A DNA stretch of 32,000 nucleotides from Candidatus Nanobsidianus stetteri (GCF_003086415.1 NZ_QEFP02000006.1:9133-41132); one strand, 5' to 3'. Shown: positions 10,996 to 31,355, counted from the stretch's first letter. Made by a program: numbers and translations. The notes: generated by a model from the sequence alone, not told the origin.

Positions 10996-11045
10996 TTATT
11001 TATTTTTTATAAAAAACTTATAACTTTACCTCTTAGATATTAGGA

Positions 11046-11897
11046 ATGGGTAGAATAGCTATATTCACAAAAACAAATTTACAAGATTATAGAATAATAA
11101 AATTAAAGGAGGAAATAAAAAATTATAATAACATTAGCATTATTGATATAGAAAAAGAAAATATATTTCCATATAATGAAAAAATATTAAACTATGATCT
11201 ATATTATTTTTTCGTTGGATCAAATTTTTTATCTGATATCCACTTTCTAGCAAAATATCTTGAACAAAATGGGAAAGAAGTAATAAATAAAATACATGTC
11301 AAAGAATCTATAATATCAAAAACTCTATTTTATAGTATCTTAAATAAATATGTAAAAATTCCAGAATTTGTAAAAATATATTCAATAGATAATATAGAAT
11401 ATGTAATAAATAAGATTGGATTTCCAATGATAATAAAGCACCAATTTATTCATAGAGGGGAATTTGTACATAAAATAGATAATGAAAAAGAATTATATAA
11501 TTTTTTAGAAAAATATTTATTAGAAAAAAGAATAAATATAAAAAATTTAATATTTCAAAAATATATACCTTATGAGAAAGATATAAGGATAATTTTCATA
11601 GGAAAACCGATTGGCGCAATGGAAAGGATTAATAAAAATAGTTTTAAGGCAAATATTAGTCAGGGAGGATATGGAAAGCAATATAAATTGGATCAAGAAA
11701 TAATAGATATTGGATATAAAATTATGGAAAAATGTGATTTACAAATATTTGCATTTGATCTATTATTAAAAGATAATCAATATTATTTGATAGATTTACA
11801 TCATATATTCCAGTATGAGGGATTTGATAAGTATTTAAATAAAAATATTACAAAAGAAATATTAAATTACTTAAATGAAATTAGTAATAAAAGCTAA
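11046..11897 (+). CDS. ATP-grasp ligase, RimK-like (alpha-L-glutamate ligase family); substrate unknown
   Basis: 283 aa. IIKHQFIHRGEFVHKI...IFQKYIPYEKDIRIIFIGKPIGAMERINKNSFKANISQGGYGKQYKL...FAFDLLLKDNQYYLIDLH follows the RimK/ATP-grasp C-terminal domain pattern. Confidence 0.8.
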   Translation: MGRIAIFTKTNLQDYRIIKLKEEIKNYNNISIIDIEKENIFPYNEKILNYDLYYFFVGSNFLSDIHFLAKYLEQNGKEVINKIHVKESIISKTLFYSILNKYVKIPEFVKIYSIDNIEYVINKIGFPMIIKHQFIHRGEFVHKIDNEKELYNFLEKYLLEKRINIKNLIFQKYIPYEKDIRIIFIGKPIGAMERINKNSFKANISQGGYGKQYKLDQEIIDIGYKIMEKCDLQIFAFDLLLKDNQYYLIDLHHIFQYEGFDKYLNKNITKEILNYLNEISNKS

Positions 11898-12282
11898 AGG
11901 GAACAAATTAATAAAGGCAACACATAAAAGTACTTTAGAAATTACTAAAGATAATTATTTAACTGAAAGAGGAGATTGTATAATTGGTATAAGTGCAAAT
12001 TACTCTGTAAAAGATTTACCAGAAGATCTTAAAGATCATTTATTAAATGAAGGAAAGATAAAGATTGTAATTAAAGTTGATGATTTAATAGATAATATAA
12101 TTGCATATGGTTCTAAAAAATTATTGTTAACAAATGATAGAAGTATTGTTATAAGAAAAAGCAATTATATTGATGATAGAACTTTAGCAATAAATTCAAA
12201 CAAGAGTGCTATTGATATTGATAGAAGATTAATAGAAAGATTGAAGAATGAGAGAGATATGGAATTTATTATATACTACTAA
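11875..12282 (+). CDS. DUF371-like protein
   Basis: 135 aa. IKATHKSTLEITKDNYLTERGDCIIGISAN matches my recollection of the DUF371 signature (H..T.E.T....T.rGDCI.G). It overlaps the ATP-grasp gene by 23 nt. Confidence 0.55.
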   Translation: MKLVIKAKGNKLIKATHKSTLEITKDNYLTERGDCIIGISANYSVKDLPEDLKDHLLNEGKIKIVIKVDDLIDNIIAYGSKKLLLTNDRSIVIRKSNYIDDRTLAINSNKSAIDIDRRLIERLKNERDMEFIIYY

Positions 12283-12535
12283 AATATTTATAAAGAATAA
12301 AATGTTTATCCTTAATTATAAAAAGAAGAGTATAAATATGGCTGTACAATTAATATTTATAATAATATAGTGGTAGTTATTGTAATTAAGTTATTTCAGC
12401 TACAAACATCAGAGATCGGTCAAATATCAAATACATAAATACAATAGGCAGTTTTAGATTGTTCAAGTTATTGTTCAAGCCCATATACATTTTGTACAAA
12501 TTATGAAAATACTTCAAACAGACTTTTTTATTTTT

Positions 12536-12560
12536 ATTTCCAACAAATTTGTCTGGAAAT
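12536..12560. repeat. 25-nt imperfect dyad ATTTCCAACAAA/TTTGTCTGGAAAT (one bulged base) preceded by T-runs, inside the long non-coding gap
   Basis: Read directly from the sequence. The outer arms are TTTCCA...TGGAAA. Function unknown. Confidence 0.5.
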
Positions 12561-12723
12561 ATAACATGTACAGAAAATACCAACGTAGATATTATATGTA
12601 ATTATATAACATGCTATTCAGTAAATAATATTATGTTTTATCAACTTGTAACAGTATATTTAGAAAGAGTTAATCAAACATATTTTAGAATTGCATAAAA
12701 GTTTTAATGGATTTTTATATATA

Positions 12724-13809
12724 ATGGGTGAAACTATTATAGATAAATTAATTGACGAAAACAAAAATATCAATAAACACATACTTATATTATATTTAAT
12801 AATATTTCCAATATCTATATTATTTTTTACAAATTTATATTATATCTTATTTGGAATATTTTACTTCTTTGCTTTATATTATTTCTTGAAAAATACAAAA
12901 TTCAATATGATAAAAATTTTATATTTATTAATTTTTATATTGCCTATATTAAATATTTTTAATAATATTTTATTTAAATATTTTGTTTATGTATTTTTTT
13001 CATTTATTTTATTTTATTTCTTTGGAAATTTTGTCGCAGAGAATAAATTATCTATAAATAGAAAGCAAATAATAATATTGATAATTTCCCTAATTTATGT
13101 TTTATTTATAACATCATATAATATTATAAATATTTATTCTTTATTTTTTATATCTCTCCTAGGTTTTTTATTCAATTTAGATGATAAAAAAATATATCAT
13201 TTAACTTCATTAAATTTTTTAAACAAATATAGCCAAATTATCTTCTCCATAATTTCTATTTTTTTATCTATACAGTTAATACTTTCCTTAATTGTTCAAA
13301 ATATTTTAATATTATTTAATATATCTTCATCTTCAATATCAGAACCTATTTTAATGTTAATATTATTTACTATATCCTCATTTTCAATATTAGAATTTAT
13401 TTTAATGCTGATGATTAAAAAAATATTTAATAAACCAGAGGGATTCACAATGTATATTTTAATATTAATAATATTTTTATTTATCTTCTTCACAATCCTA
13501 TTTTTCTTAATAAAAAATAATATAATTTACATTATTCAAAATATTATAATTATGTTTTTATTTTTCTTTACCGCAATTCACGCTTATTTGTATCATAGGT
13601 TTCCAGACAGTAAAAAAATAATTTTGGGAATTGTTTCAGGAATACCATTTATATTAATGAATTTCGTAAATTATTTCTACTATATTAATCCAGGAACTCT
13701 ATTTAATTTTCCCTTATTTATAATTTTATTTTCAATAAACTTACTAATATTGGCAATTATAGGATTAGTATTAATTTATATACATTCAATATATAAAAAG
13801 CATATCTAA
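12724..13809 (+). CDS. hypothetical polytopic membrane protein (about 10 or more TM segments)
   Basis: The ORF track begins at a TTG (12691). The first in-frame ATG is at 12724 and I prefer it. The protein is extremely hydrophobic and Ile/Phe/Leu rich, with no family recognised. It contains a diverged in-frame 51-nt internal duplication (13332..13433). Confidence 0.6.
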   Translation: MGETIIDKLIDENKNINKHILILYLIIFPISILFFTNLYYILFGIFYFFALYYFLKNTKFNMIKILYLLIFILPILNIFNNILFKYFVYVFFSFILFYFFGNFVAENKLSINRKQIIILIISLIYVLFITSYNIINIYSLFFISLLGFLFNLDDKKIYHLTSLNFLNKYSQIIFSIISIFLSIQLILSLIVQNILILFNISSSSISEPILMLILFTISSFSILEFILMLMIKKIFNKPEGFTMYILILIIFLFIFFTILFFLIKNNIIYIIQNIIIMFLFFFTAIHAYLYHRFPDSKKIILGIVSGIPFILMNFVNYFYYINPGTLFNFPLFIILFSINLLILAIIGLVLIYIHSIYKKHI

Positions 13810-13824
13810 ATTTCCCAAAGATAA

Positions 13825-14655
13825 CTATACTTTATTATTAAACATTGCAATAGTTTCTATTACTATTTTTGATGCTAAATTATCACATACTTCATTTGAA
13901 AATAATTCTACTAAATCAAAACCAATTAGATTAATATTTCTTAATTCCTTTATAATCTTAAAATAATGATATGGTCTAATTCCAATACCTTCTAACCAAT
14001 GTCCACATCCAGTATCAAATACATCTATATCAATTGAAATATATAAATTCTTATTTTTCAATATATCTGATATTTCTTTTGAAATTTCCTTTATATTATC
14101 CCAAACATCCAAAGGATTATAATATTTTATTCCCCATTCTTTTATTATATTCTTTTCTTCAAATGATAGATTAGATATACCAACAAAAATAATCTTTTCA
14201 GGTTCAATATAATTTTCCTTTATTAAATGATAAATAAGGCTTTGATAATTTGGATATGGATCTGGATGAATATCAGGATGAGCATCAAAATATAATAAAT
14301 AAAAATCCCTCCAATTTTCTTTAATAATTTTTAATATTGGATATGTTATTGAATGATCTCCTCCCAAAAATATATATTTTTTATCTTTCCTATATATTTT
14401 TTTAATTTCATTATATATTTTTTCATATAATTTATCTAGATCTTTTATATCTTCTAAATCTATATCACCATAATCATATATTTCTTCCATATTTATTTCT
14501 CCAAATATTGGAGAAAATATTCTATAAGATGCATCTCTAATTGATTCAGGTCCTTCAATATAATTTTTTATATGAGATAAACTACCAATTTCGGATGGGA
14601 TTCCTACTATTATCCATTTTGATTTATCATATTCACCCTGAGCATGTGCAAACAT
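13825..14655 (-). CDS. speB: agmatinase / arginase-family ureohydrolase
   Basis: 276 aa. The metal-binding motifs FLGGDHSITYP, YFDAHPDIHPD and YISIDIDVFD are typical of the arginase/agmatinase fold. The size is typical of archaeal SpeB. Confidence 0.8.
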   Translation of the reverse strand: MFAHAQGEYDKSKWIIVGIPSEIGSLSHIKNYIEGPESIRDASYRIFSPIFGEINMEEIYDYGDIDLEDIKDLDKLYEKIYNEIKKIYRKDKKYIFLGGDHSITYPILKIIKENWRDFYLLYFDAHPDIHPDPYPNYQSLIYHLIKENYIEPEKIIFVGISNLSFEEKNIIKEWGIKYYNPLDVWDNIKEISKEISDILKNKNLYISIDIDVFDTGCGHWLEGIGIRPYHYFKIIKELRNINLIGFDLVELFSNEVCDNLASKIVIETIAMFNNKV

Positions 14656-14688
14656 TAAACTAAAATAATTATCATACTTATATTTTTA

Positions 14689-15303
14689 ATGGATAAAGAA
14701 AAAATGATTGAAGAATTAAATAATCAAATATCAAAATGTACAAGATGTCCTTTATATAAATTTAAAACAAATTATGTTCCAGGTGATGGTAATCCAAATT
14801 CAAAGATATTATTTATAGGGGAAGCACCTGGTAGAGAAGAGGATAAACAGGGAAAACCTTTTGTTGGAAAAGCTGGACAAGTATTAACTGAAAATATAAA
14901 AAATATATTAAATATGGATAGAAAAGATGTATATATAACAAATGTTGTTAAATGCAGACCACCAGAAAATAGAGAACCTGAAGAAGAAGAAATAAAAGCA
15001 TGTTCCATTTGGCTAGAAAAGCAATTAGAAATAATTCAACCAGATATAATAGTAACTCTAGGTCATTATTCGACAAAATGGATTTTTGATTACTTTAAAT
15101 TAAAATTTTCTTCAATAACAAAATTGAGAGGAAAAATATTTAAAGTAAATAAATGGGGAAAAATTATTACAATAATTCCAACATTACATCCAGCATCTAC
15201 ATTATATCATAAAGAATGGAGAGAATATTTTGATCAAGATTTTAAAACAATAAAAGAAATATTAAATAAAGATAAAAGGGAGGGAATATTAAAATTTATA
15301 TGA
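14689..15303 (+). CDS. udg: uracil-DNA glycosylase, family 4 (thermophile-type, Fe-S)
   Basis: 204 aa. CTRCPL, GEAPGREEDKQGKPFVGKAGQVL, VYITNVVKCRPPENREP and HPAS are all present. Confidence 0.9.
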   Translation: MDKEKMIEELNNQISKCTRCPLYKFKTNYVPGDGNPNSKILFIGEAPGREEDKQGKPFVGKAGQVLTENIKNILNMDRKDVYITNVVKCRPPENREPEEEEIKACSIWLEKQLEIIQPDIIVTLGHYSTKWIFDYFKLKFSSITKLRGKIFKVNKWGKIITIIPTLHPASTLYHKEWREYFDQDFKTIKEILNKDKREGILKFI

Positions 15304-15352
15304 TGATGTTGCGCGCGACTGAATAAATGATGAATACACCTCCTCCCTGAAA
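15298..15352 (+). ncRNA. C/D box sRNA (2'-O-methylation guide)
   Basis: The elements are C box ATGATGA (15300..15306), a 12-nt guide TGTTGCGCGCGA, D' box CTGA (15319..15322), a 4-nt spacer, C' box ATGATGA (15327..15333), a 13-nt guide ATACACCTCCTCC and D box CTGA (15347..15350). The box order and the 12-13 nt spacers are canonical for archaea. It forms a GC-rich island in AT-rich surroundings. The ends are approximate. Confidence 0.75.
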
Positions 15353-15383
15353 AAATATAAAATAGTTAAAATATTAATTAATT

Positions 15384-15770
15384 ATGGATAACATTCAAGA
15401 TTTAGAAAACCAATTATTAACTCAAATAAGAAATTTATTATCACAAATAAATAACTATGTTTTACAATTACAAAGTTTAAATGAATATGAAAAAAATATT
15501 AGTGGAAATCCATATATTTTATATAATTATCAAATGCAAGAAATTAATAATTTAATAAATTTAATGAAATTGTTAATAAGTATTCTAGAAAGTATAAAAG
15601 ATTATATAACTTTATATTATAAAGAAATAAGTGGAAATACATATATAACACCAAATATAAAAGTTGAAATAATTGGACAAATAAATAATGGAATAAAAGA
15701 AATAAAAAGCATGATTGATAAATTATTTGTAGAAATAGAAATATTAACTAATAATTTACAGAGATTTTAA
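15384..15770 (+). CDS. hypothetical helical protein with two ~43-aa internal repeats
   Basis: 128 aa, rich in Asn/Ile/Gln/Leu, with a heptad-like pattern. The motifs ISGNPYI and ISGNTYI are spaced 129 nt (43 codons) apart. Confidence 0.5.
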   Translation: MDNIQDLENQLLTQIRNLLSQINNYVLQLQSLNEYEKNISGNPYILYNYQMQEINNLINLMKLLISILESIKDYITLYYKEISGNTYITPNIKVEIIGQINNGIKEIKSMIDKLFVEIEILTNNLQRF

Positions 15771-16076
15771 ATATTCTATTGTATAATTCAACATATCCTC
15801 ATTTATATCTAAACCCTCAATTATATACCTAAATTTTTTCTTTGGAATTATAATCTTAAATGGTTTTAACTTTTTATGATATTGAATCAATTCAAAATTT
15901 GAATTATATAGATAAATATCCAATGGTTTTAAACAAAAAAATGTATGAACAAATCCATCTTCAACATCCTTTTTTAAATCTAAAATATATATTGTATTTT
16001 CTTTTGGTAATTGAAACATTAAACCAATAAAAGATCTAAGAGGACCAAAATATTTTATATTATACTTGTATTCCAA
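15756..16076 (-). CDS. DUF192-like protein
   Basis: 106 aa. RSFIGLMFQ...[21 protein letters not shown]...FRYIIEG resembles the DUF192 pattern (rGLM...fwM...pLDi.f.d..g.v...yvlE), recalled from memory. It overlaps rps27ae by 17 nt. Confidence 0.55.
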
Positions 16077-22774: not shown

Positions 22775-23443
22775 TTATTGGGATTTTCCTTTATCTCCGC
22801 CCTGTTTTTCAGATCCTTTTCCACCTTCAGAACCAACACTAGTACCGGAAAATATCAAAAATATTCCTATTAAAATAAAGAATATCATTGCAAACAATAT
22901 ATAAGGATTAAAGGTTATTATATAATTTTGTGCCTGTGGAGATGTACCTAAAGTTATTGATAAAAAGTAACTTTGATATGCATAATACATAGATAGTAAA
23001 GCAAATAGAATAATAAATACTACTATTATTATTGGTAAATATCTAGCACCACTTGGTCTTCCTTCACTTGAAAATAATCTTTTTTCTATTACTTCAAATA
23101 TTTTACCATTTGTTAAGAAAGATCCTATAATTATGAAGAAAAAGAATACCAAAATCATTGATACTGTAAAAGCTACAAAATATTGAGTATATAATACAAA
23201 ACCAGTAAATGTTGTTAACAATATTGATGCAGAAACCGATATAATAAATGCTAATATACTATATATATCTTTCTTTGATCCCCCTTCATCTTTCTTTTCC
23301 CCTTTTTCACCTGCTTTTACCATACTATCCATTAAAAATTTTATTAGAAAATATAATATTCCAAAATAGAATAGAAAAACAAATATTAAATTTATTCCCA
23401 ATACATTTACTACATTTATTATAAAATCTGCAAATGATGTCAT
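22775..23443 (-). CDS. hypothetical membrane protein with Gly/Lys-rich loop and tail
   Basis: 222 aa with about 6 TM segments. It has the loop KAGEKGEKKDEGGSKKD and the tail GSEGGKGSEKQGGDKGKSQ. Its stop codon directly abuts the SBDS stop codon (22774/22775). Confidence 0.55.
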   Translation of the reverse strand: MTSFADFIINVVNVLGINLIFVFLFYFGILYFLIKFLMDSMVKAGEKGEKKDEGGSKKDIYSILAFIISVSASILLTTFTGFVLYTQYFVAFTVSMILVFFFFIIIGSFLTNGKIFEVIEKRLFSSEGRPSGARYLPIIIVVFIILFALLSMYYAYQSYFLSITLGTSPQAQNYIITFNPYILFAMIFFILIGIFLIFSGTSVGSEGGKGSEKQGGDKGKSQ

Positions 23444-23476: not shown

Positions 23477-25096
23477 TTACATAGAATCATAAATATTTAT
23501 ATATTCGTTTATATTATTTTTCCAATCAAATTTTTTAGATATTTCATACATTTGCTTTTTTATTTCCATTTTATCATATAAATCCAAATTATAATATTGT
23601 AAAAATTTATTATATATAAGTTCTTTATCCAAATTATTTGGATCTACATTAATTATATATTCATGATTTATGTTTTTACTTATTAGATTTCTATAAAATC
23701 CTGTTTTATTAGATAAAACAATTGGAACAAAATTGTTCAATGCTTCTAATGGTGTATATCCATAAGGTTCGTATCTTGATAAAAATACACCAAAATCAAA
23801 TGCTGGTAATATATATTCTGGATCTAAACTAAATAAAATATCATTTCCAAGATAAACTGGAACATATATAACTTTTACATAATTATTTTTATCATTATTT
23901 AAATTGTTTTCCTTCAATTTTTCAATTATAATATTATTTTCTACATCATGAGTACATATTGGAGGGCTTCTATTCTTTATTCTATCTAATTTATCCAATA
24001 CATTTTTTCCGTTATATAAAGATCTAATAATTAAATGTATATTTTCCTCTATATTTTCCTTCAATTTAATATACTCTTTATAAGATCTTATTATATCACT
24101 ATTTTGTCCTTTAATATTATAGGGAACAAAAATAAATGCAATAGTATTTAATCTCTTTTCATCTAAATATTTTAATAAATCAATAAATAAATCTAAACCC
24201 TTATTATATGGTTCATATCTTCCAATAGTATATATTAGTAAATATTTTTCTGGTAAATCATAATATGGATGAAAATACCATGTTAAAAATTCATCTATCC
24301 ATTTCTTCGAAATTTTATAATAATTAAATAATTCTTTTTCTTTTACATTTATATAATTGTATGTTATATAATCTGGTTTTCTTTTGTATATTTTATATGC
24401 TTCCTCTCCTAAATTATCTGATACTACTGTAAATATATCAGAATTTAATATTGCCTGTTTTTCCAATTGATATTTTGAATTTATTCCCAATCTATATGAA
24501 TCTTTATCTGGATCTATTATATTCAATGCATTTTCTACATTTACATTTTTTTCAGATAATGTTCTTCCAATAACTGTTCCATGGATTGTTAATATTGTTT
24601 TATAATTTAGATTATTTTTCTTTATATATAATATTGTACCGCCAGATAACCATTCATGTGCATGTAATATTTTCTTCTCATTAAAATATTTATCCAATTT
24701 TTCTAAAAATATACCAACAGCAACAGACCATAATAATGGTTCATCAAAAGTAAAATCAGAATTTAAAGAATCTATTTTATACCATTCCCAATATTTATAT
24801 TTCCATAAATTTCTTTCTTTATTAAAAAATTCATCAAATTCTATTAAAAATACATTTGGCTTTGATTCAATATTCCAATATCCATAATGTACTTTAATTC
24901 CATCCAATTGATAATTTATTTCTTTTATATAATCGGGAGGATCTAATTCAATAAATTCTGAACTATTTTTATATGGACCAATCAAAAAATATTTATCCTT
25001 ATATCTTTCTTTTATATATTTTGCTTTAGTAGATATTACAGTATATATTCCTCCTACTTTATTGCATACTTCCCAAGATTGTTCAAATAATATCAT
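23477..25096 (-). CDS. glycogen synthase, GT3 (eukaryote-like Glycogen_syn family)
   Basis: 539 aa. The N-terminus ILFEQSWEVCNKVGGIYTVISTKAKY is nearly the eukaryotic GT3 signature LFE.SWEVANKVGGIYTV. HAHEWLSG and the C-terminal YEPYGYTPLEA are also present. Confidence 0.85.
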   Translation of the reverse strand: MILFEQSWEVCNKVGGIYTVISTKAKYIKERYKDKYFLIGPYKNSSEFIELDPPDYIKEINYQLDGIKVHYGYWNIESKPNVFLIEFDEFFNKERNLWKYKYWEWYKIDSLNSDFTFDEPLLWSVAVGIFLEKLDKYFNEKKILHAHEWLSGGTILYIKKNNLNYKTILTIHGTVIGRTLSEKNVNVENALNIIDPDKDSYRLGINSKYQLEKQAILNSDIFTVVSDNLGEEAYKIYKRKPDYITYNYINVKEKELFNYYKISKKWIDEFLTWYFHPYYDLPEKYLLIYTIGRYEPYNKGLDLFIDLLKYLDEKRLNTIAFIFVPYNIKGQNSDIIRSYKEYIKLKENIEENIHLIIRSLYNGKNVLDKLDRIKNRSPPICTHDVENNIIIEKLKENNLNNDKNNYVKVIYVPVYLGNDILFSLDPEYILPAFDFGVFLSRYEPYGYTPLEALNNFVPIVLSNKTGFYRNLISKNINHEYIINVDPNNLDKELIYNKFLQYYNLDLYDKMEIKKQMYEISKKFDWKNNINEYINIYDSM

Positions 25097-25755
25097 CTGA
25101 ATAAAATATCAAATATGCTTCTTCTCTTTCTATTACCAGTTATACAATATGCTAGCTCATCTATATATTTCAATGCCTTTGATTTTTCATTATAAAATGC
25201 GATTGGTTGATATTGAAATTGATAATTAATAAAATCTTTAATTACTGGAATAACTACATATACTTCTTTATTATATACATCCTCTATAAAATCTATTTCA
25301 ATACTCTTATCATATTTATTTAATACTATTTTAACTTTATTTTTATCTAAGAGATCGTATAATTTTTTATTTACATATAAAGAATAGAAATCTGGATTTA
25401 TTACTAAAAAATTTATATCAGATACTTTTTCAATATTTAATATATAATTTATATTCGGAAGTACATCAAAAATAATTACATCATAATACCTTTTCAAATA
25501 ATTTAAATCATTAATATTAAAATCTAAATTATCTATAATTTTTAAATGGAAGTATGGTAATACCTTTATTCCTTGATATATTTTATTTCCAAATAATTTT
25601 TCATTATTTAGAAATATTAGATTCGAAGAATAAATTCCATTTGTATCTATTATCAATACTTTATAATTATATTCCTTTTTTAAATATGCTGCAAGATTAT
25701 TTGCTAATGTAGTTTTTCCAACCCCGCCCTTTAATGATATAAAAGATACTATCAT
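25093..25755 (-). CDS. ParA/MinD-family P-loop ATPase
   Basis: 220 aa. Deviant Walker A with the signature Lys: SLKGGVGKTTLANNLAAYL...VLIIDTN. The C-terminus RKRRSIFDILFR is a basic amphipathic tail. ATGA overlaps occur at both ends (25093..25096 and 25752..25755). Confidence 0.85.
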   Translation of the reverse strand: MIVSFISLKGGVGKTTLANNLAAYLKKEYNYKVLIIDTNGIYSSNLIFLNNEKLFGNKIYQGIKVLPYFHLKIIDNLDFNINDLNYLKRYYDVIIFDVLPNINYILNIEKVSDINFLVINPDFYSLYVNKKLYDLLDKNKVKIVLNKYDKSIEIDFIEDVYNKEVYVVIPVIKDFINYQFQYQPIAFYNEKSKALKYIDELAYCITGNRKRRSIFDILFR

Positions 25756-26066
25756 AATCCTAATAATTTTGAAAATTTTATTTCAGCTTCTTCTTTTGAA
25801 ATTTTTTTCTTTACATATATTTCATGAATTTTTAAGAAATTTCCTATAATTTTTATATATTCATCCTTATCTTTTGCTTCCTTTATTTTTTCATATAAAC
25901 TTTCCTCCTTTAATGAATTTTTTATCCATTCTGGAAAATGATTTTTATGATAATTAAATTTATCTTGATCTGCATTGTATAACCAAATTAACAAATCTTG
26001 AAGACCATATAATTTTTGTCCATCAATAGTAATAAATGCTTGTTTTTCATCATCAACTTCAATCAT
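25752..26066 (-). CDS. hypothetical 104-aa protein, first gene of the ParA/glycogen-synthase operon
   Basis: The ORF has an ATGA overlap with the ParA-like gene. FITIDGQKLYGLQDLLIWLYNADQDKFNYHKNHFPEWIKNSL is followed by a Lys/Glu-rich helical tail. It vaguely recalls a small domain I have seen next to archaeal alpha-glucan genes, but I cannot verify that. Confidence 0.5.
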   Translation of the reverse strand: MIEVDDEKQAFITIDGQKLYGLQDLLIWLYNADQDKFNYHKNHFPEWIKNSLKEESLYEKIKEAKDKDEYIKIIGNFLKIHEIYVKKKISKEEAEIKFSKLLGL

Positions 26067-26103
26067 ATTAAATTTTATATTGTTATATCTTTAAAAGATA
26101 TTT

Positions 26104-27279
26104 ATGACAGGCATTGTATTTTATTTCCATGCACATCAACCAAGAAGAATAAGATATTATTCTTTTTTTGATATTGGATCAAAAAATTATTTCAACGATG
26201 ATTTAAATAAAAGAATATTAGATAGGGTTGTATATAAATGTTATAAGCCAGCATTAGAAATGATATATGATAATATTACAAAATATGATATAAAAGTATC
26301 ATTTTCAATTTCTGGAACATTAATTGAGCAATTAGAATTATACCATCCAGAAATTTTGGAATTATGGAAAAAATTGGTAGATACTGGAAATGTAGAAATT
26401 GTATCTGAAACTTACTACCATTCATTGGCATATTTAATTGATAAAGATGAATTTATTAACCAAATAAAATTGCATAGAAAGAAAATAAAAGAAATATTTA
26501 ATTATAAATCTAAAAGCTTTAGAAATTTTGAGCTTGTATTTAATAATGAAATAGGAGAAATTGTATATTCTTTAGGATATAAAGTTGCATTAACTGAAGG
26601 AACTGAAAAAATTTTAGGAAATAGAAGTCCAAATTATGTTTATAAATTAAAAATAAATAATCTAAGATTATTATTAAGAAACTATAGATTATCTGATGAT
26701 ATAGGATTTAGATTTACAAATAAGAATTGGTCGGAATATCCATTAACTGCGGATAAATATTATTTATGGCTAAAGAGTACTCCGGGAGATATAATAAATA
26801 TATTCATGGATTTTGAAACAATTGGGGAACATATATGGAAAGAATCTGGAATATTTGAATTTTGGAATAAGTTATTTGAATATATTGGAAAAGAAAGATA
26901 TTTTGAAACATATAATATAACTGAAGCTGCAGAAGAATTTGATTATAAAGGTGAATTAGATATTCCAGAATTAATATCATGGGCTGATATTGAGAGAGAC
27001 TTGTCTGCATGGATTGGGGATAGTATACAAAGAGAAGCTTTAGATTATTTAAGAGAATTATATAAAAAATATAAGAATGATGAAAAGATACTAAATATAT
27101 TAAGATATTTATCAACTTCAGATAATTTCTATTATATGAGTTTAAAATATAATAGCGATGGAGATGTACATAAATATTTTAGGGAAGAAGCTTTTGCAAC
27201 CCCATATGATTCTTTTATATCATATATGAATATTCTAAAAGATATAGAATTAAATGAGGCTATTGAAAATAGAAATTAA
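26104..27279 (+). CDS. glycoside hydrolase family 57 (alpha-amylase-like)
   Basis: 391 aa. GH57 conserved regions are present: FHAHQP, GNVEIVSETYYH, FRNFELVFNN and FMDFETIGEH. Confidence 0.85.
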   Translation: MTGIVFYFHAHQPRRIRYYSFFDIGSKNYFNDDLNKRILDRVVYKCYKPALEMIYDNITKYDIKVSFSISGTLIEQLELYHPEILELWKKLVDTGNVEIVSETYYHSLAYLIDKDEFINQIKLHRKKIKEIFNYKSKSFRNFELVFNNEIGEIVYSLGYKVALTEGTEKILGNRSPNYVYKLKINNLRLLLRNYRLSDDIGFRFTNKNWSEYPLTADKYYLWLKSTPGDIINIFMDFETIGEHIWKESGIFEFWNKLFEYIGKERYFETYNITEAAEEFDYKGELDIPELISWADIERDLSAWIGDSIQREALDYLRELYKKYKNDEKILNILRYLSTSDNFYYMSLKYNSDGDVHKYFREEAFATPYDSFISYMNILKDIELNEAIENRN

Positions 27280-28446
27280 TTTTTCTACAGAATCTTTCCA
27301 AGATAAATTTTTTATATCATCTAAACATAGTTTTATCTCATATTCTCCCAATTTTGGATAAGATAACAATGCCAATATATAATCTGCCATTTTATTTACA
27401 TCCCAAAAATCAACTGCCATTGCATTTTTTAATACTTCATATACACCCGTTTGTTTTGATATTATAATAAAGTCTTTATATTTTAAAGCTTCGAAGGGAG
27501 TTAAACCAAAAGGTTCTGATACGGATGGCAAAACAAATATATCTGCTATTGAATATAAATATTCTGCTAAATCATCATCAACCCATCCAGTAAATATTAC
27601 ATTTTTTGATATATTTAAATCTGCAGCCATTTTTATTAATTGTTCCAACATTTCTCCAGTTCCTGCAAATATAAATAATACATCCTTTCTTTTTTCTAAA
27701 ACTCTTTTAGCTGCTCTTAATAAATAATCTGGACCTTTATGCATTGTCATTCTCCCAAGATATAATACTATTTTATATTTCTCCTTTATTTTACTATTTA
27801 TTTTTTCTTTTATACTAAAATCATCATCTGGGGCGTTATATATTACATCAATCTTCTTTTCATCACAATTATAATATTTTACCAATATATCCTTTTCCCT
27901 TTTACTTACTACTATAACCTTATCAGCATATTTACAAGCTTCCAACTCTATTCCATAATCATAATCAAATAAATATTTTAATATATCTGGATTTCCTCCA
28001 ACTCTATCATATACTAAAGAATGAAAATGAATAACCAATGGTTTTTTATATATTTTCTTTATTTCTATACCTGCTAAAGCTGTTAACCAATCATATGCAT
28101 ATATAATATCAAAATCCAATTTCATATTCTTCAACACATCTAATATTCTATCTTTATATTCAATTACCGCTCTTTTATAATCTATAATTTTTCTTTTATA
28201 TAATGTAAAAGACTCATATTTAAAATAATCTATATATGATTGATATACTTTCATATTTAATCCGAAGATTTTTGAATTCTTTAATTTATTATTCCAAAAA
28301 GATTTTACATCATCAGTCAAGTTTAAAATAAATAAATAAACATTGTTATTAAAATAATCAAGATATTTTAAATAATAATATGTTACTTTTTCCAATCCGC
28401 CACCTTTTTGAGGAAACACTCCCCATGATAAAAAGAGTATTTTCAT
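27250..28446 (-). CDS. GT-B glycosyltransferase with KxGGL motif (GlgA-like GT5/GT4 alpha-glucan synthase candidate)
   Basis: 398 aa. N-terminal MKILFLSWGVFPQKGGGLEKV carries the KxGGL starch/glycogen synthase signature. C-terminal VLPSVSEPFGLTPFEALKY is present. Its 3' end overlaps the GH57 3' end by 30 nt (convergent). Confidence 0.8.
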   Translation of the reverse strand: MKILFLSWGVFPQKGGGLEKVTYYYLKYLDYFNNNVYLFILNLTDDVKSFWNNKLKNSKIFGLNMKVYQSYIDYFKYESFTLYKRKIIDYKRAVIEYKDRILDVLKNMKLDFDIIYAYDWLTALAGIEIKKIYKKPLVIHFHSLVYDRVGGNPDILKYLFDYDYGIELEACKYADKVIVVSKREKDILVKYYNCDEKKIDVIYNAPDDDFSIKEKINSKIKEKYKIVLYLGRMTMHKGPDYLLRAAKRVLEKRKDVLFIFAGTGEMLEQLIKMAADLNISKNVIFTGWVDDDLAEYLYSIADIFVLPSVSEPFGLTPFEALKYKDFIIISKQTGVYEVLKNAMAVDFWDVNKMADYILALLSYPKLGEYEIKLCLDDIKNLSWKDSVEKLISIFNSLI

Positions 28447-28497: not shown

Positions 28498-30102
28498 ATG
28501 GAAAATGTAATTGAATTGGATATTTTTGATTATGCTATTATAAATAATAAAGGTTCCTTTTTGTTTTTACCTTTACTATATAACAGTAGATATTTTGGTT
28601 TATTACAATATTATAATAACAATTTTATCAAAATAATAGAAAAAATAGAAAATAGGGAGATAAATTATAATGAAATTGAAAAAGTAATATTAAAAGATTA
28701 TAATGATTTAAAAATAATTTATAAAAATGGATGGGAAGAATATAAATTAATAGACAATAAATTAATATATAAAACAAATAAATATTCTACTTTGAATGTT
28801 TATTTCGATATAAGATATTTATATGATATAGATGAATGGGGAAGGATATATAATAATGAAAAAAATAAAGATTATGTAAAGATAAAATTTAATAAAGGTG
28901 ATTTAAACTATGAAGTAATAATAAAGGGATTTGAAGTTTATCAAGAATTAAATAAATGGATAAAGGTAAATTATAATTATGATTTATATAGAAAATCTCC
29001 TCCATTTGAAAGATATATATATTTACCATTTTCCTTTTATGCAAAAGAATTGGAAATAATATATAAAAATGATAAGGAAAATTTAAATGGAAAGAATTTA
29101 ATTGAAAATAGGTTATTATCCTTTATTTATGATAATAATATCTCTGCAGGTTTTCCATGGTATTTTCAAGAATGGAGTAGAGATATATTAATTTCATTAA
29201 AGGGATTATATTATATTAATAAAGATATTGTAAAGAATAAGTTAATTGAATATTCAAATTATTTTTTACTAGATGGAAGATTAAAAAATATAAAAAATGA
29301 AAATGTTGGAAATTCTGATGGAATTGGATTATATATTTTTAGATTATTTCAATTTAAAGATTTGTTTGAAAAAGAAATATTTGATAAATTAATAGATAAT
29401 ATAATTGAAAAGTTAAAATTATTTGAAGAAAATTATTTAGATGAAAAATTATTCTTATTTAAAGCATATCCAAATGAAACATGGATGGATACATTAAATA
29501 GAATTTATCCAATAGAAATACAATTCTTAATGGCAAATGCATATGATAACTTATATAATTATACAAAAAAAGATGAATATAAAGAAAAATTGGAAAAAAT
29601 AAAGAATTCAATTAGAAAAAATTATTTATCAGATTATTCTTTATATGATGATATAAAAAATAAAAAGATAAGATGTAATATATTTTTATCCTATTATTTT
29701 TATCCGAAGATATTTTCAAATTATGAGTGGGAAAATATTTTTGATTATTCATTAACTCATTTATATCTAAAATGGGGAGGAATTAGTAGTTTATCTATAT
29801 TTGATAAAGAATTTATTCCATATAGTAATGAGGATAATTATTTTAAAAATGAGGGAAAGTCAATGCATAATGGAGATTCATGGATTTTTATAAATAACAT
29901 TGCTGCTATTGATTTATATAATTTAAATAAGGAAAAATACGGAAATATAATAAATAGTATTTTAAAATCTAATGAAAGATTGATAAAAATGATAGGAACA
30001 TTACCAGAAAGATCCAGCGCATATGAATTAAAACCAGCAGGGGCTTTACATCAACTATGGTCAATATCAACTTATATAGAATTATTAAATAATATAAAAT
30101 AA
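28498..30102 (+). CDS. amylo-alpha-1,6-glucosidase / glycogen debranching enzyme (GDE C-terminal domain family)
   Basis: 534 aa. GFPWYFQEWSRDILISLKGL, HNGDSWIFINN and LHQLWSISTYIELL match the GDE_C pattern (w..wGRD..i.l.Gl; hNG..W.w; .WS.a). Confidence 0.8.
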   Translation: MENVIELDIFDYAIINNKGSFLFLPLLYNSRYFGLLQYYNNNFIKIIEKIENREINYNEIEKVILKDYNDLKIIYKNGWEEYKLIDNKLIYKTNKYSTLNVYFDIRYLYDIDEWGRIYNNEKNKDYVKIKFNKGDLNYEVIIKGFEVYQELNKWIKVNYNYDLYRKSPPFERYIYLPFSFYAKELEIIYKNDKENLNGKNLIENRLLSFIYDNNISAGFPWYFQEWSRDILISLKGLYYINKDIVKNKLIEYSNYFLLDGRLKNIKNENVGNSDGIGLYIFRLFQFKDLFEKEIFDKLIDNIIEKLKLFEENYLDEKLFLFKAYPNETWMDTLNRIYPIEIQFLMANAYDNLYNYTKKDEYKEKLEKIKNSIRKNYLSDYSLYDDIKNKKIRCNIFLSYYFYPKIFSNYEWENIFDYSLTHLYLKWGGISSLSIFDKEFIPYSNEDNYFKNEGKSMHNGDSWIFINNIAAIDLYNLNKEKYGNIINSILKSNERLIKMIGTLPERSSAYELKPAGALHQLWSISTYIELLNNIK

Positions 30103-30103
30103 G

Positions 30104-31018
30104 ATGTGGTGGAAAAAATATGGGTTCTTTAAGAATCCCTTGGATATAAGACCAAATGAAGATTTGGTAGGAGTAGATGATATAATAAAAAAGGTAAAAG
30201 ATTCTATAATAAATGGTGAAATATTTCTATTATATGGTCCAATTGGTTCAGGGAAAACATCTTTAGCATTTAAAATTAAAAAAGATCTATCAGATGATTA
30301 TAATGTAATATATATAAATGGAGAATATGAAAAGGATAAAGACATAAATTATATAATTGAAAAAAATAAGTATATTAAGTTTTTATTTTTTAAATTTGAA
30401 AATAAATTACCCATAGTATTAATATTAGATGAATTTTATAATTTTCCAGAAGATGTATCTAAAAAACTAAAATATTTATATGATAATAGAATTGTTCATT
30501 CAATAATGTTAATTCAACCATCCCCACAAATAATGAATGCTTCTTTATCTTTCTTGAATAGATTATATAGAAAGATTGAAATGAAATTCCCTCCAGAAGA
30601 TGAAATATTAAAATTAATAAATAAGAAATTAAAGGGAAGAGTAAATATAGATGAAAAAATATTGAGAAATTTAATAAGAAAAAATAATAATAATGTTAGA
30701 CAGATATTTATTGAATTAAATAATTTATTGGAGGAGGGAATAAATAATATAAATAAGGAATTAGAAGAAATAAAGAATTTTGAAGGCGATATAAAATTAT
30801 CAAATACACAAATAAAAATTCTAGAAGTATTATATAAAAATAAGATGTCTTCAAGAGAAATATCAAGAATATTAGATCTTCCAAGAAATACTGTATCAAA
30901 ATATTTGAATAAAATGTATAAAAAAGGTATATTAATAAGAGAAGTAAATAACAATGAATATATTTATAGTATAAATCCACAATATATAAATATTATATCA
31001 AAGAAGATTGGAAAATAG
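30104..31018 (+). CDS. AAA-type P-loop ATPase with a C-terminal winged-helix DNA-binding domain
   Basis: 304 aa. An ExeA/ORC-like N-terminus (YGFFKNPLDIRPNEDLVG), Walker A LLYGPIGSGKTSLA, Walker B VLILDEF and a C-terminal HTH (SSREISRILDLPRNTVSKYLNKMYKKGILIRE). It starts 1 nt after the debranching-enzyme stop. Confidence 0.7.
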   Translation: MWWKKYGFFKNPLDIRPNEDLVGVDDIIKKVKDSIINGEIFLLYGPIGSGKTSLAFKIKKDLSDDYNVIYINGEYEKDKDINYIIEKNKYIKFLFFKFENKLPIVLILDEFYNFPEDVSKKLKYLYDNRIVHSIMLIQPSPQIMNASLSFLNRLYRKIEMKFPPEDEILKLINKKLKGRVNIDEKILRNLIRKNNNNVRQIFIELNNLLEEGINNINKELEEIKNFEGDIKLSNTQIKILEVLYKNKMSSREISRILDLPRNTVSKYLNKMYKKGILIREVNNNEYIYSINPQYINIISKKIGK

Positions 31019-31090
31019 CCACCGTAGCTCAGCTGGTAGAGCGCTACCCTGGTAAGGTAGAGGCCCCGGGTTCAAATCCCGGCGGTGGCA
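31018..31090 (+). tRNA. tRNA-Thr (anticodon GGU), 73 nt, no intron, CCA not encoded
   Basis: Hand-folded cloverleaf. Acceptor GCCACCG/CGGTGGC, D stem GCTC/GAGC, anticodon stem CTACC/GGTAG, loop CTGGTAA, variable AGGCC, T stem CCGGG/CCCGG, T loop TTCAAAT, discriminator A. All stems are G+C rich. Confidence 0.93.
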
Positions 31091-31355
31091 CTGGCTTTTC
31101 ATTTAATTTTTCAAAAGATATACTTAAAATTTAATAAATTATAATTATTTAATGTGGAATAAAATTGTTAATAATGGTTATTTAAACAATAAAGATAATA
31201 CTTTATCTATTATTATTAATATTACTAATTTAATTAGCAATAAATACTTAATAAGAGGAAATTATTTACAAATAATTGTAAAAAACTTTAATATGCTAAT
31301 AATCAAAATATTCTTAAGTATTAGAAAAATAATTAAATCATTAATAATTATTTAT

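Follow-up and report, generated by a model that had tools for sequence, protein, structure and literature searches.

The BcsRQ system pairs a 7-kDa protein with a MinD-like ATPase whose catalytic Asp is substituted and which forms a stable ATP dimer with weak ATPase activity; BcsR2Q2 contacts the glycosyltransferase domain of BcsA, is required if the synthase is to work or stay stable and is essential for secretion, and the genes are arranged in the order bcsR-bcsQ-bcsA (PMC7840130). The substituted residue is the one at the switch I position that activates the catalytic water, where BcsQ has Cys or Ser (PMC7840130). In archaea, the Haloferax MinD homologues MinD2 and MinD4 are reported to affect positioning of the motility machinery and cell shape, not division. 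Archaeal glycogen synthases of family GT3 are uncharacterized, the priming of chains without glycogenin is an open question and the regulation of archaeal glycogen metabolism is largely unexplored; the GT3 sequences of DPANN archaea are closer to those of eukaryotes and the PVC group, and DPANN are not known to have a homologue of glycogenin (GT8) (PMC11046441). In the 32,000-nucleotide stretch of Candidatus Nanobsidianus stetteri DNA analyzed here (GCF_003086415.1, NZ_QEFP02000006.1:9133-41132; hereafter the window), genes for a 104-aa protein, a ParA/MinD-superfamily ATPase and a GT3 glycogen synthase follow one another on the minus strand, and the products of the first two are probably accessory components of glycogen metabolism. 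By analogy with BcsRQ, they could well form a MinD-derived, ATP-dependent assembly or tethering switch in which the ATPase acts with the small protein on the synthase, a reading that we favor tentatively.

The genes, the membrane protein gene that follows them and the junctions between them are listed below (aa, amino acids; TM, transmembrane segments). Nps and Nst1 numbers refer to the gene table of Wurch et al. 2016, in which the genes of the locus are Nst1_590-596 and Nps_00360-00390.

25752..26066, minus strand: OrfY-like (DUF5752) single-repeat protein, 104 aa (N. acidilobi orthologue Nps_00375; Nst1_593)
25093..25755, minus strand: derived MinD-like (ParA/MinD superfamily) ATPase, 220 aa (Nps_00380; Nst1_592; arCOG00589)
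23477..25096, minus strand: GT3-family glycogen synthase, 539 aa (Nps_00385; Nst1_591)
22775..23443, minus strand: predicted 5-TM membrane protein, 222 aa, probable fourth operon gene (Nps_00390; Nst1_590)
25752..25755, minus strand: ATGA stop/start overlap of small gene and ATPase gene (ATGA or TAATG in 8/8 loci)
25093..25096, minus strand: ATGA stop/start overlap of ATPase gene and GT3 gene (ATGA or TAATG in 8/8 loci)

The open reading frames (ORFs), called at 26066..25752, 25755..25093 and 25096..23477, bear out the initial annotation of this DNA, which had described three minus-strand genes joined by ATGA overlaps. The coupled unit that it proposed also stands, both junctions being 4-nt ATGA or 1-nt TAATG overlaps in the window and in seven more orthologous loci. 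Its assignment of the 539-aa protein to GT3 is secure, with a match to Glycogen_syn (PF05693) over residues 5-527 at E=1.3e-75 (255.7 bits, cut-off 27). The 5-TM gene lies on the same strand, 33 nt downstream of the GT3 gene, and occupies this position in all Nanopusillaceae loci, with a gap to GT3 of -4 to 33 nt that becomes a 4-nt overlap with the GT3 stop in locus L005 (L and P numbers are our own for loci and proteins), suggesting that the unit probably comprises four genes. Its product has no Pfam family match; hydrophobic segments are present in the sequence. The N. acidilobi orthologue is listed with five transmembrane domains (Wurch et al. 2016). All four genes would be co-transcribed and the first three, to judge from the conserved overlaps, translationally coupled.

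The 104-aa protein has no direct match in Pfam, the gathering score of DUF5752 (PF19027, 23 bits) not being reached; four of its orthologues match this family below threshold (E 0.004-0.04, 13.6-17.1 bits). Out of 1.84 billion proteins, a family profile (A1) detects 602 representatives at E<=1e-3; a sample of 60 contained 42 that match PF19027, the best at 5e-14. A broader profile whose first row is the window protein (A9) matches the two repeats of Thermoproteus tenax OrfY (PDB 4cso) at E=9.2e-8. The AlphaFold2 (AF2) model of the window protein, a beta-hairpin followed by a helical bundle, has a predicted local distance difference test score (pLDDT) of 88 overall and above 93 for residues 1-80, and its top PDB match in Foldseek is likewise 4cso (probability 0.96, root mean square deviation 2.1 A, 82 columns). 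Residues H40 and W47 are invariant. The 104-aa protein is thus a single-repeat homologue of T. tenax OrfY/DUF5752. The domain is found alone (about 100 aa), duplicated or fused, including to other P-loop ATPases such as KaiC (P0169); the literature searched held nothing on DUF5752 or T. tenax OrfY, including any published function. A Woesearchaeota homologue (P0141) adjoins an H+-PPase gene and a weak PGI match, with no ATPase gene.

The distribution of DUF5752 provides the clearest link to glycogen. GTDB species genomes, scanned with a GT3 alignment, gave 80 loci, the ORFs of which were then scanned with local hidden Markov models; loci of MinD-like ATPases (n=84, 577 kb) served as the background set for the DUF5752 count (E<=1e-5). 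DUF5752 was detected in 19 of 39 archaeal GT3 loci outside Nanopusillaceae (36 ORFs in 444 kb), in none of 37 bacterial GT3 loci (0 ORFs in 464 kb) and in two of the 84 background loci (3 ORFs in 577 kb, each flanking the ATPase gene). The usual archaeal order is GT5 - GH57 - DUF5752 (1-3 copies) - GT3 - GDE, and the DUF5752 gene abuts or overlaps GT3 in L031, L033, L034, L042, L048 and L051. In other DPANN clusters GH57 is directly upstream of the DUF5752 gene(s) or fused to the domain; the metagenomic protein P0143 is encoded directly after a GH57 gene, and in two DPANN-type glycogen clusters (L041:4047-5633 and L058:3106-4503, both single stop-to-stop ORFs) the C-terminus of GH57 itself carries a DUF5752 domain, a Rosetta-stone link of the OrfY-like domain to a GH57 enzyme. 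DUF5752, which occurs mostly in clusters lacking any ATPase and sometimes fused to GH57, is thus a core component of DPANN glycogen clusters, independent of the ATPase. The initial annotation had paired the 104-aa protein with the ATPase on the logic of small adaptors; given this distribution, it is no ParA-specific adaptor. Judged by gene neighborhoods, DPANN glycogen clusters have the OrfY-like protein as a general component, with the ATPase as an optional add-on, and the link of DUF5752 to glycogen genes is the more general and better-supported result of this analysis than the ATPase module.

The DUF5752 genes of DPANN clusters usually occur as tandem pairs (L018, L019, L020, L022, L023, L029, L033, L034, L035, L038, L039, L044, L045, L048, L051 and L082, with three copies in L022), one copy being short (about 100 aa) and the other often longer; the second copy in L044 has 369 aa and an acidic C-terminal extension. 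Bacterial loci, mostly of Bacteroidota (L054, L056, L057, L062, L063, L066 and others), carry the GT3 domain at the N-terminus of ORFs of about 1,400 aa, with no DUF5752. Contigs of metagenome-assembled genomes labeled 'uncultured Methanosarcinales archaeon' (L019, L024, L025, L029, L033, L036, L038, L044) also carry glycogen clusters; their glycogen and MinD-like genes are closest to those of Woesearchaeota and other DPANN, and the taxonomic labels may be unreliable.

Structure 4cso was deposited as 'ORFY PROTEIN, TRANSCRIPTION FACTOR', which raises the possibility that the small protein is a DNA-binding regulator modulated by the ATPase, so that the pair would control expression and not the location of an enzyme. 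FleN, an anti-activator of FleQ, offers a model for such a pair, and FleN-type MinD-like ATPases are among the structural matches of the window ATPase; the small gene moreover adjoins a 37-bp divergent promoter region. No publication backing the PDB label was found in the literature searched, and neither Pfam nor the fold search returned a helix-turn-helix (HTH) or other DNA-binding fold. A basic isoelectric point (8.5-10) is common among DUF5752 proteins that stand alone, as a DNA-binding role might predict, whereas the core of the window protein is acidic (5.1). Occurrence in one to three tandem copies and fusion to GH57, KaiC and other non-DNA proteins would be unusual for a specific repressor, and the cluster already has a separate AAA+-HTH gene. 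The 37 bp between the divergent small-gene and GH57 starts (26067-26103; 34-37 bp in most orthologous loci) contain a perfect 8-bp inverted repeat, ATATCTTT-T-AAAGATAT; as an operator it was discarded, since it is not conserved in six orthologous loci and in DNA this AT-rich probably arose by chance. A transcriptional role for the pair is accordingly considered improbable.

The 220-aa protein matches the Pfam families CbiA and AAA_31 of the ParA/MinD superfamily, and three of its features are central to what follows.

25708..25737, minus strand: deviant Walker A SLKGGVGKTT, residues 7-16 (signature Lys9, P-loop Lys14), from the translation
25639..25647, minus strand: switch I D37-T38-N39, with Asn for the second (water-activating) Asp of the MinD/Soj 'DxD', from alignment
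25096..25137, minus strand: C-terminal tail GNRKRRSIFDILFR, a basic cluster and short hydrophobic helix, candidate membrane-targeting sequence, from sequence and model

The deviant Walker A motif, already recognized in the initial annotation, keeps both lysines throughout, K9, G10, G11, V12, G13, K14 and T15 being invariant in the ATPase alignments (A2, A8); in the Walker B motif, YDVIIFD, D97 is invariant in the clade. HMMER alignments pair the DTN of the window ATPase with DAD of Aquifex MinD and DLD of SegA, and N39 is nearly invariant both in the clade and in the parent group of DPANN proteins, here termed DGN-type. This Asn is a catalytic variation as in BcsQ and does not exclude the protein from the ParA/MinD fold superfamily. 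The AF2 model (pLDDT 92) has TM-scores of 0.72-0.78 to MinD and ParA structures, the top PDB matches being MinD (4v02, 1g3q, 1hyq) with ParA, FlhG, SegA, Soj and BcsQ close behind. The protein is therefore a genuine member of the ParA/MinD superfamily (SIMIBI class, deviant Walker A).

Its descent is a separate matter. The window ATPase scores 43.2 bits on the archaeal MinD model TIGR01969 (cut-off 201.75) and 43.8 bits on the partition ParA model NF041546 (cut-off 180), both short of membership. The DGN-type group, which is about 40 aa longer, scores 164-181 bits over its full length on TIGR01969 (also below the cut-off) and 52-63 bits on partition ParA. Judged on these scores, the ATPase is a shortened, highly derived paralogue from the archaeal MinD-like proteins, not a partition ParA, so that the original label of ParA/MinD-type ATPase holds for superfamily fold and motifs and needs amending as to ancestry. 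Membership of other families failed: BcsQ (TIGR03371, 36 bits against a cut-off of 158; PF06564, 26.6 bits over residues 3-49 only, no domain passing), Mrp (NF041136 MrpORP, 21 bits against 450; PF10609, 26.4 bits against 27.1) and BY-kinases (TIGR01007, 17 bits against 108). Mrp/NBP35 proteins have a conserved C-terminal CxxC motif and BY-kinases a C-terminal tyrosine cluster; the window ATPase has a single Cys (C204), no CxxC and no Tyr in its tail. A grouping with Mrp/NBP35, named in the initial annotation as an outcome that would count against its reading, is not borne out. No MinC or MinE domain was found among the window neighbor genes scanned with Pfam.

The tail pattern G-x-[KR][KR]-x-[KR]-[SG]-[IL]-[FL]-x-x-I-[FL] is kept in the clade, with a net charge of +2 to +5 over the last 16 residues, and in the AF2 model residues 214-218 form a detached helix (pLDDT about 55). 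Of the MinD-type amphipathic tail first described, the conserved basic hydrophobic pattern is upheld, and the amphipathicity is unremarkable, a value compatible both with a membrane-targeting sequence and with the lack of one. N. acidilobi has a second arCOG00589 gene, Nps_03280, which adjoins DPH2 and is also preceded by an uncharacterized protein, Nps_03275 (Wurch et al. 2016 gene table and Supplementary Data 1, respectively). A member of the general family, P0090, is likewise encoded close to a diphthamide-synthase gene, and these like contexts point to the window ATPase as a specialized paralogue, in agreement with the view that it is dedicated and not the organism's only MinD/ParA protein.

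The best PDB sequence match of the ATPase is Sulfolobus SegA (7dut, 220 aa, E=2.3e-6), and the small partner is about as long as SegB (roughly 109 aa), the two observations that would suit a DNA segregation pair of the SegAB or ParAB kind, unrelated to the synthase. In segAB the small gene lies downstream, whereas here it lies upstream of the ATPase gene; SegA keeps DxD where the window ATPase has DxN; and the tail and descent of the latter are those of MinD-like proteins. Neither ParB nor SegB came up in Pfam or PDB profile searches for the small protein, which is OrfY-like and whose family tracks glycogen genes. A segregation pair is, on balance, barely credible.

More was made in the initial annotation of positioning in the manner of McdAB, in which the ATP-bound ATPase would cover the membrane or nucleoid, hydrolysis would be stimulated by small protein attached to glycogen granules, and the resulting gradient would space the granules or partition them at division. 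A ParA/MinD fold with the signature lysine and a small partner gene immediately upstream agree with the general cargo-positioning logic of ParA-family proteins, as outlined in PMC11588486. Asn in place of the water-activating Asp argues against fast cycling, however, and the affinities of the ATPase lie with MinD-like proteins and not with partition ParA. Most clusters that have the small protein lack an ATPase, and sometimes it is fused to GH57, so that it is no dedicated cargo adaptor. The cells are cocci 100-300 nm across (Wurch et al. 2016), which leaves little room for gradients. For these reasons taken together a granule-partitioning gradient is very improbable, and a slow switch or assembly factor is favored by N39 and by cell size.

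The DUF5752-ATPase order recurs outside the family. In L038 and L044 the order is GT5-GH57-DUF-DUF-ATPase-GT3, with the ATPase start overlapping the DUF5752 stop, which places a related ATPase between DUF5752 and GT3 in an independent lineage. The two ATPases are 70% identical to one another and 50-58% identical to the DGN-type proteins P0090, P0105 and P0088, a group which is the nearest outgroup of the window clade, at about 30% identity to the window ATPase. In L044 the ATPase gene is number five of nine in a glycogen operon that lies on one strand, in which GT3 is followed by ORFs of 328 aa and 451 aa, taken here as a GalT-like transferase and a phosphoglucomutase, and by GDE; the 5-TM gene is absent after GT3 in this locus. 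A metagenome scan with a DGN-type alignment gave 80 loci, to which four more were added, and 69 of these had at least 500 nt upstream of the ATPase gene. A DUF5752 gene is immediately upstream in three of the 69 (L132, L138, L142). L132 has the order GT5-GH57-DUF-ATPase-DUF, followed by a 651-aa ORF, presumably a glucoamylase, and lacks GT3; in L138, a short contig, DUF5752 precedes the ATPase. Counted by lineage, ATPases of this family come after a DUF5752 gene in at least three lineages besides that of the window, in two of them within glycogen operons (L038/L044 and L132). An upstream DUF5752 partner as a general trait of this MinD-like family was rejected on this count. From these neighborhoods, the adjacency of DUF5752 and a MinD-like ATPase is a minority arrangement, yet recurrent and more frequent than chance, and the constant neighbor of the ATPase is, as far as gene order tells, DUF5752 and not GT3.

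Four loci of Aenigmatarchaeota type have a ParA gene about 2.6 kb upstream of GT3, just before GDE (L050:2542-3327, L064:2625-3383, L075:2622-3389, L083:2623-3390). These were discarded as further examples, being ordinary Soj-type proteins of another family (DLDPQANAT) that are 41-43% identical to a bacterial ParA in L095; DUF5752 was not detected in the four loci.

Within Nanopusillaceae, the family of Candidatus Nanobsidianus stetteri (a protein of which equals the window ATPase at 100% identity), ATPase identity to the window protein is 91-100% in Nanopusillus, then 73, 71, 63 (Nanobdella aerobiophila), 58, 50, 49 and 46%, falling beyond the clade to about 30% (DPANN proteins annotated MinD). 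The order small gene - ATPase - GT3 - Pfam-less membrane protein is kept in every readable contig with a clade ATPase, adjoining GH57, GT5 and GDE, down to about 42-50% identity. Against the closest relative, L016, the ratio of non-synonymous to synonymous substitution rates is lowest in GT3 (0.07), followed by the small gene (0.09), the ATPase (0.15) and the membrane protein (0.27), and all four genes are, by this measure, under purifying selection. Conservation of the triplet in relatives, proposed as a check, is thus found in Nanopusillaceae, but extends to the wider neighborhood.

That last observation bears on the possibility that the ATPase is a mere passenger of the operon, doing a generic archaeal MinD job (archaellum, division proteins or other cargo) unrelated to glycogen. 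The operon is compact and belongs to a 0.6-Mb genome in which overlaps are common, the parent family is archaeal MinD-like, as its TIGR01969 scores show, and the Haloferax homologues cited above are reported to act on motility-machinery positioning and cell shape. Several observations weigh against a role in glycogen synthesis in the same way. SBDS, proteasome alpha, TFB and Lon are likewise syntenic across Nanopusillaceae, and since the entire neighborhood is, conservation within the family is weak evidence of functional linkage. P0089 and P0090 stand in housekeeping contexts, 66 of the 69 MinD-like family loci lack DUF5752 upstream or a glycogen neighbor, and 37 of 39 archaeal GT3 clusters lack a MinD-like ATPase. 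In L142 a degenerate DUF5752-like gene is paired with the ATPase outside any glycogen context. The D-x-N motif is family-wide and hence no special adaptation to glycogen; the hydrophobic moment of the tail, 0.40, is at the 71st percentile of the protein's 11-mers and unremarkable; and the depositors of 4cso called OrfY a transcription factor. In a neighbor-joining tree of 126 ATPases, which carries no support values, glycogen-linked members are interspersed with unlinked ones and Nanopusillaceae lie on a long branch, so that it is compatible with one recruitment into glycogen clusters as well as with several. Finally, the small protein and the ATPase are without values in the N. acidilobi proteome, in which GT3, the GT5-like enzyme, GDE and the AAA+-HTH protein were detected (GT3 orthologue Nps_00385 at 0.18% of spectra, rank 148); GH57 and the 5-TM protein are also without values, as are many genes of that table (Wurch et al. 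2016).

The pair in L142 (5634-6804) consists of a 123-aa degenerate DUF5752-like gene (E=2e-5) overlapping the start of the MinD-like ATPase gene, downstream of a 204-aa ORF and upstream of apparent 2-oxoacid:ferredoxin oxidoreductase subunits, and hints that DUF5752 and the ATPase can also form an independent unit.

A generic MinD function is nevertheless unlikely, although more probable than the transcriptional role considered above. A second arCOG00589 paralogue is available for housekeeping, and DUF5752 followed by an ATPase gene, with a stop/start overlap, recurs in L038/L044, L132 and L138, where the ATPases are about 30% identical to that of the window. In L044 the ATPase gene lies within the glycogen operon itself. 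The window clade is, in addition, strongly derived (43 bits on the archaeal MinD model, about 40 aa shorter), as expected after neofunctionalization.

The favored MinD-derived switch would operate as follows. With intact Walker A and B motifs and a MinD fold, the ATPase is predicted to bind ATP and form a sandwich dimer via its signature lysine. Its intrinsic hydrolysis would probably be slow and the ATP dimer long-lived; mutants of MinD at D40 and of Soj at D40/44 are said to behave in this way. The same analogy extends from the Asn that replaces Asp here to BcsQ D39C/S (PMC7840130). The two basic hydrophobic C-terminal tails of the dimer, of conserved pattern, may bind the membrane. Partners of the dimer would be the OrfY-like protein and, by direct contact or by way of that protein, GT3 or other glycogen enzymes; as the recurrent gene adjacency suggests, this engagement may control the place or time of alpha-glucan synthesis.

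A bolder version takes OrfY/DUF5752 as the missing accessory factor of GT3, presenting primers or scaffolding in the place of glycogenin and so nucleating alpha-glucan. In Nanopusillaceae and a handful of further DPANN lineages, the MinD-derived switch would then hold the initiation complex at the membrane, perhaps close to the 5-TM protein and to the site of host contact; we regard this as a long shot. Were it so, cells of 100-300 nm would start glycogen synthesis with machinery that is under spatial control and of a kind not known before.

The locus points to two uncharacterized families that travel with DPANN glycogen enzymes, OrfY/DUF5752, which is widespread and of solved structure, and the rarer MinD-derived ATPase. 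Should both act on the synthase, they would constitute the first module of the ParA/MinD family to serve a storage polysaccharide, and an archaeal counterpart to the control of cellulose synthase by BcsRQ. The literature searched yielded no paper linking ParA/MinD proteins or DUF5752 to glycogen, in line with the opening premise of the initial annotation that no such system has been described. Two extra genes kept in this operon by an obligate ectosymbiont of about 600 genes suggest that it is important for the cell to control glycogen synthesis, perhaps in order to survive detachment from its host (Wurch et al. 2016). Both proteins are small and soluble, which makes binding, ATPase and liposome assays feasible.

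The remaining genes of the cluster lie on the other side of the small gene.

26104..27279, plus strand: GH57 glycoside hydrolase, 37 bp from the divergent small gene (PF03065, E=8e-74)
27250..28446, minus strand: GT4/GT5-type (GlgA-like) glycosyltransferase, second putative glucan synthase (Glycos_transf_1, Glyco_transf_4 and Glyco_transf_5 matches)
28498..30102, plus strand: amylo-alpha-1,6-glucosidase (GDE_C) debranching enzyme (PF06202, E=1.5e-18; orthologue Nps_00360)
30104..31018, plus strand: AAA+ ATPase fused to an HTH domain, 304 aa (orthologues with AAA_14 plus TrmB/HTH_5/MarR matches; Nps_00355)

The GT4/GT5-type gene matches NCBIfam models of glgA type below their cut-offs, and its N. 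acidilobi orthologue is Nps_00365; it converges with the GH57 gene, the 3' ends overlapping by 30 nt (27250-27279), and the arrangement is alike in L001, L003 and L006. The AAA+-HTH ORF begins 1 nt past the GDE stop, and its last base is the first of a tRNA-Thr(GGT) gene (31018-31091, plus strand). It adjoins GDE in most Nanopusillaceae loci read and is missing from L014/L015. The orthologue is listed as 'AAA+ fused to ArsR family HTH' and detected in the proteome (Wurch et al. 2016), and the gene is a possible local regulator of the glycogen cluster. The window as a whole is very AT-rich (about 19-31% GC), with the lowest GC content at 11000-16000 (0.19-0.22), where the sign of the GC skew flips relative to the flanks as the coding strand switches.

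Comparison with described systems sets the locus apart from each of them in some respect. Eukaryotic glycogen synthase, which works with glycogenin, belongs to the same GT family (PF05693) as the window synthase, but DUF5752 is a helical domain of about 80 aa without a glycosyltransferase fold. T. tenax OrfY shares with the window small protein the fold and the H-x(3)-N-D/H-F-x(2)-W motif region, and differs in having two repeats (216 aa) where the window protein has one repeat and a basic C-terminal helix. With the archaeal MinD-like proteins (TIGR01969; DGN-type) the window ATPase has in common the fold, Walker A, the D-x-N switch and a basic hydrophobic tail. The positioning and partition systems McdAB, ParABS and SegAB resemble it in that the gene of a deviant Walker A ATPase adjoins that of a small partner; the window ATPase is, in contrast, MinD-derived, with its catalytic Asp replaced and a tail like a membrane-targeting sequence and not a DNA-binding surface, and its partner is a widespread glycogen-cluster domain, not a dedicated adaptor. 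An archaeal oscillatory system described in a preprint (PMC13228585) was set aside as a precedent, since it concerns an unrelated GTPase system.

The initial annotation looked to McdAB, plasmid and chemoreceptor systems for the closest logic and overlooked a nearer precedent in BcsR-BcsQ-BcsA. There, as in the window, a small protein, a MinD-family SIMIBI ATPase and a glucan-forming glycosyltransferase are encoded in that order, the catalytic Asp is substituted in both ATPases (D39C/S in BcsQ, N39 in the window), and BcsQ is among the structural matches of the window model. The differences are nonetheless considerable: BcsQ lost both Walker A lysines and the window ATPase keeps both, BcsR (DUF2629) is unrelated to DUF5752, and BcsA makes beta-glucan as a GT2 enzyme of the membrane, equipped with a PilZ domain and controlled by c-di-GMP, unlike the window GT3, an alpha-glucan synthase of soluble type. 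The likeness is one of functional analogy, the window ATPase being no member of the BcsQ family, and on that analogy the locus most likely works in the manner of BcsR-BcsQ and BcsA in preference to a ParA gradient that partitions cargo.

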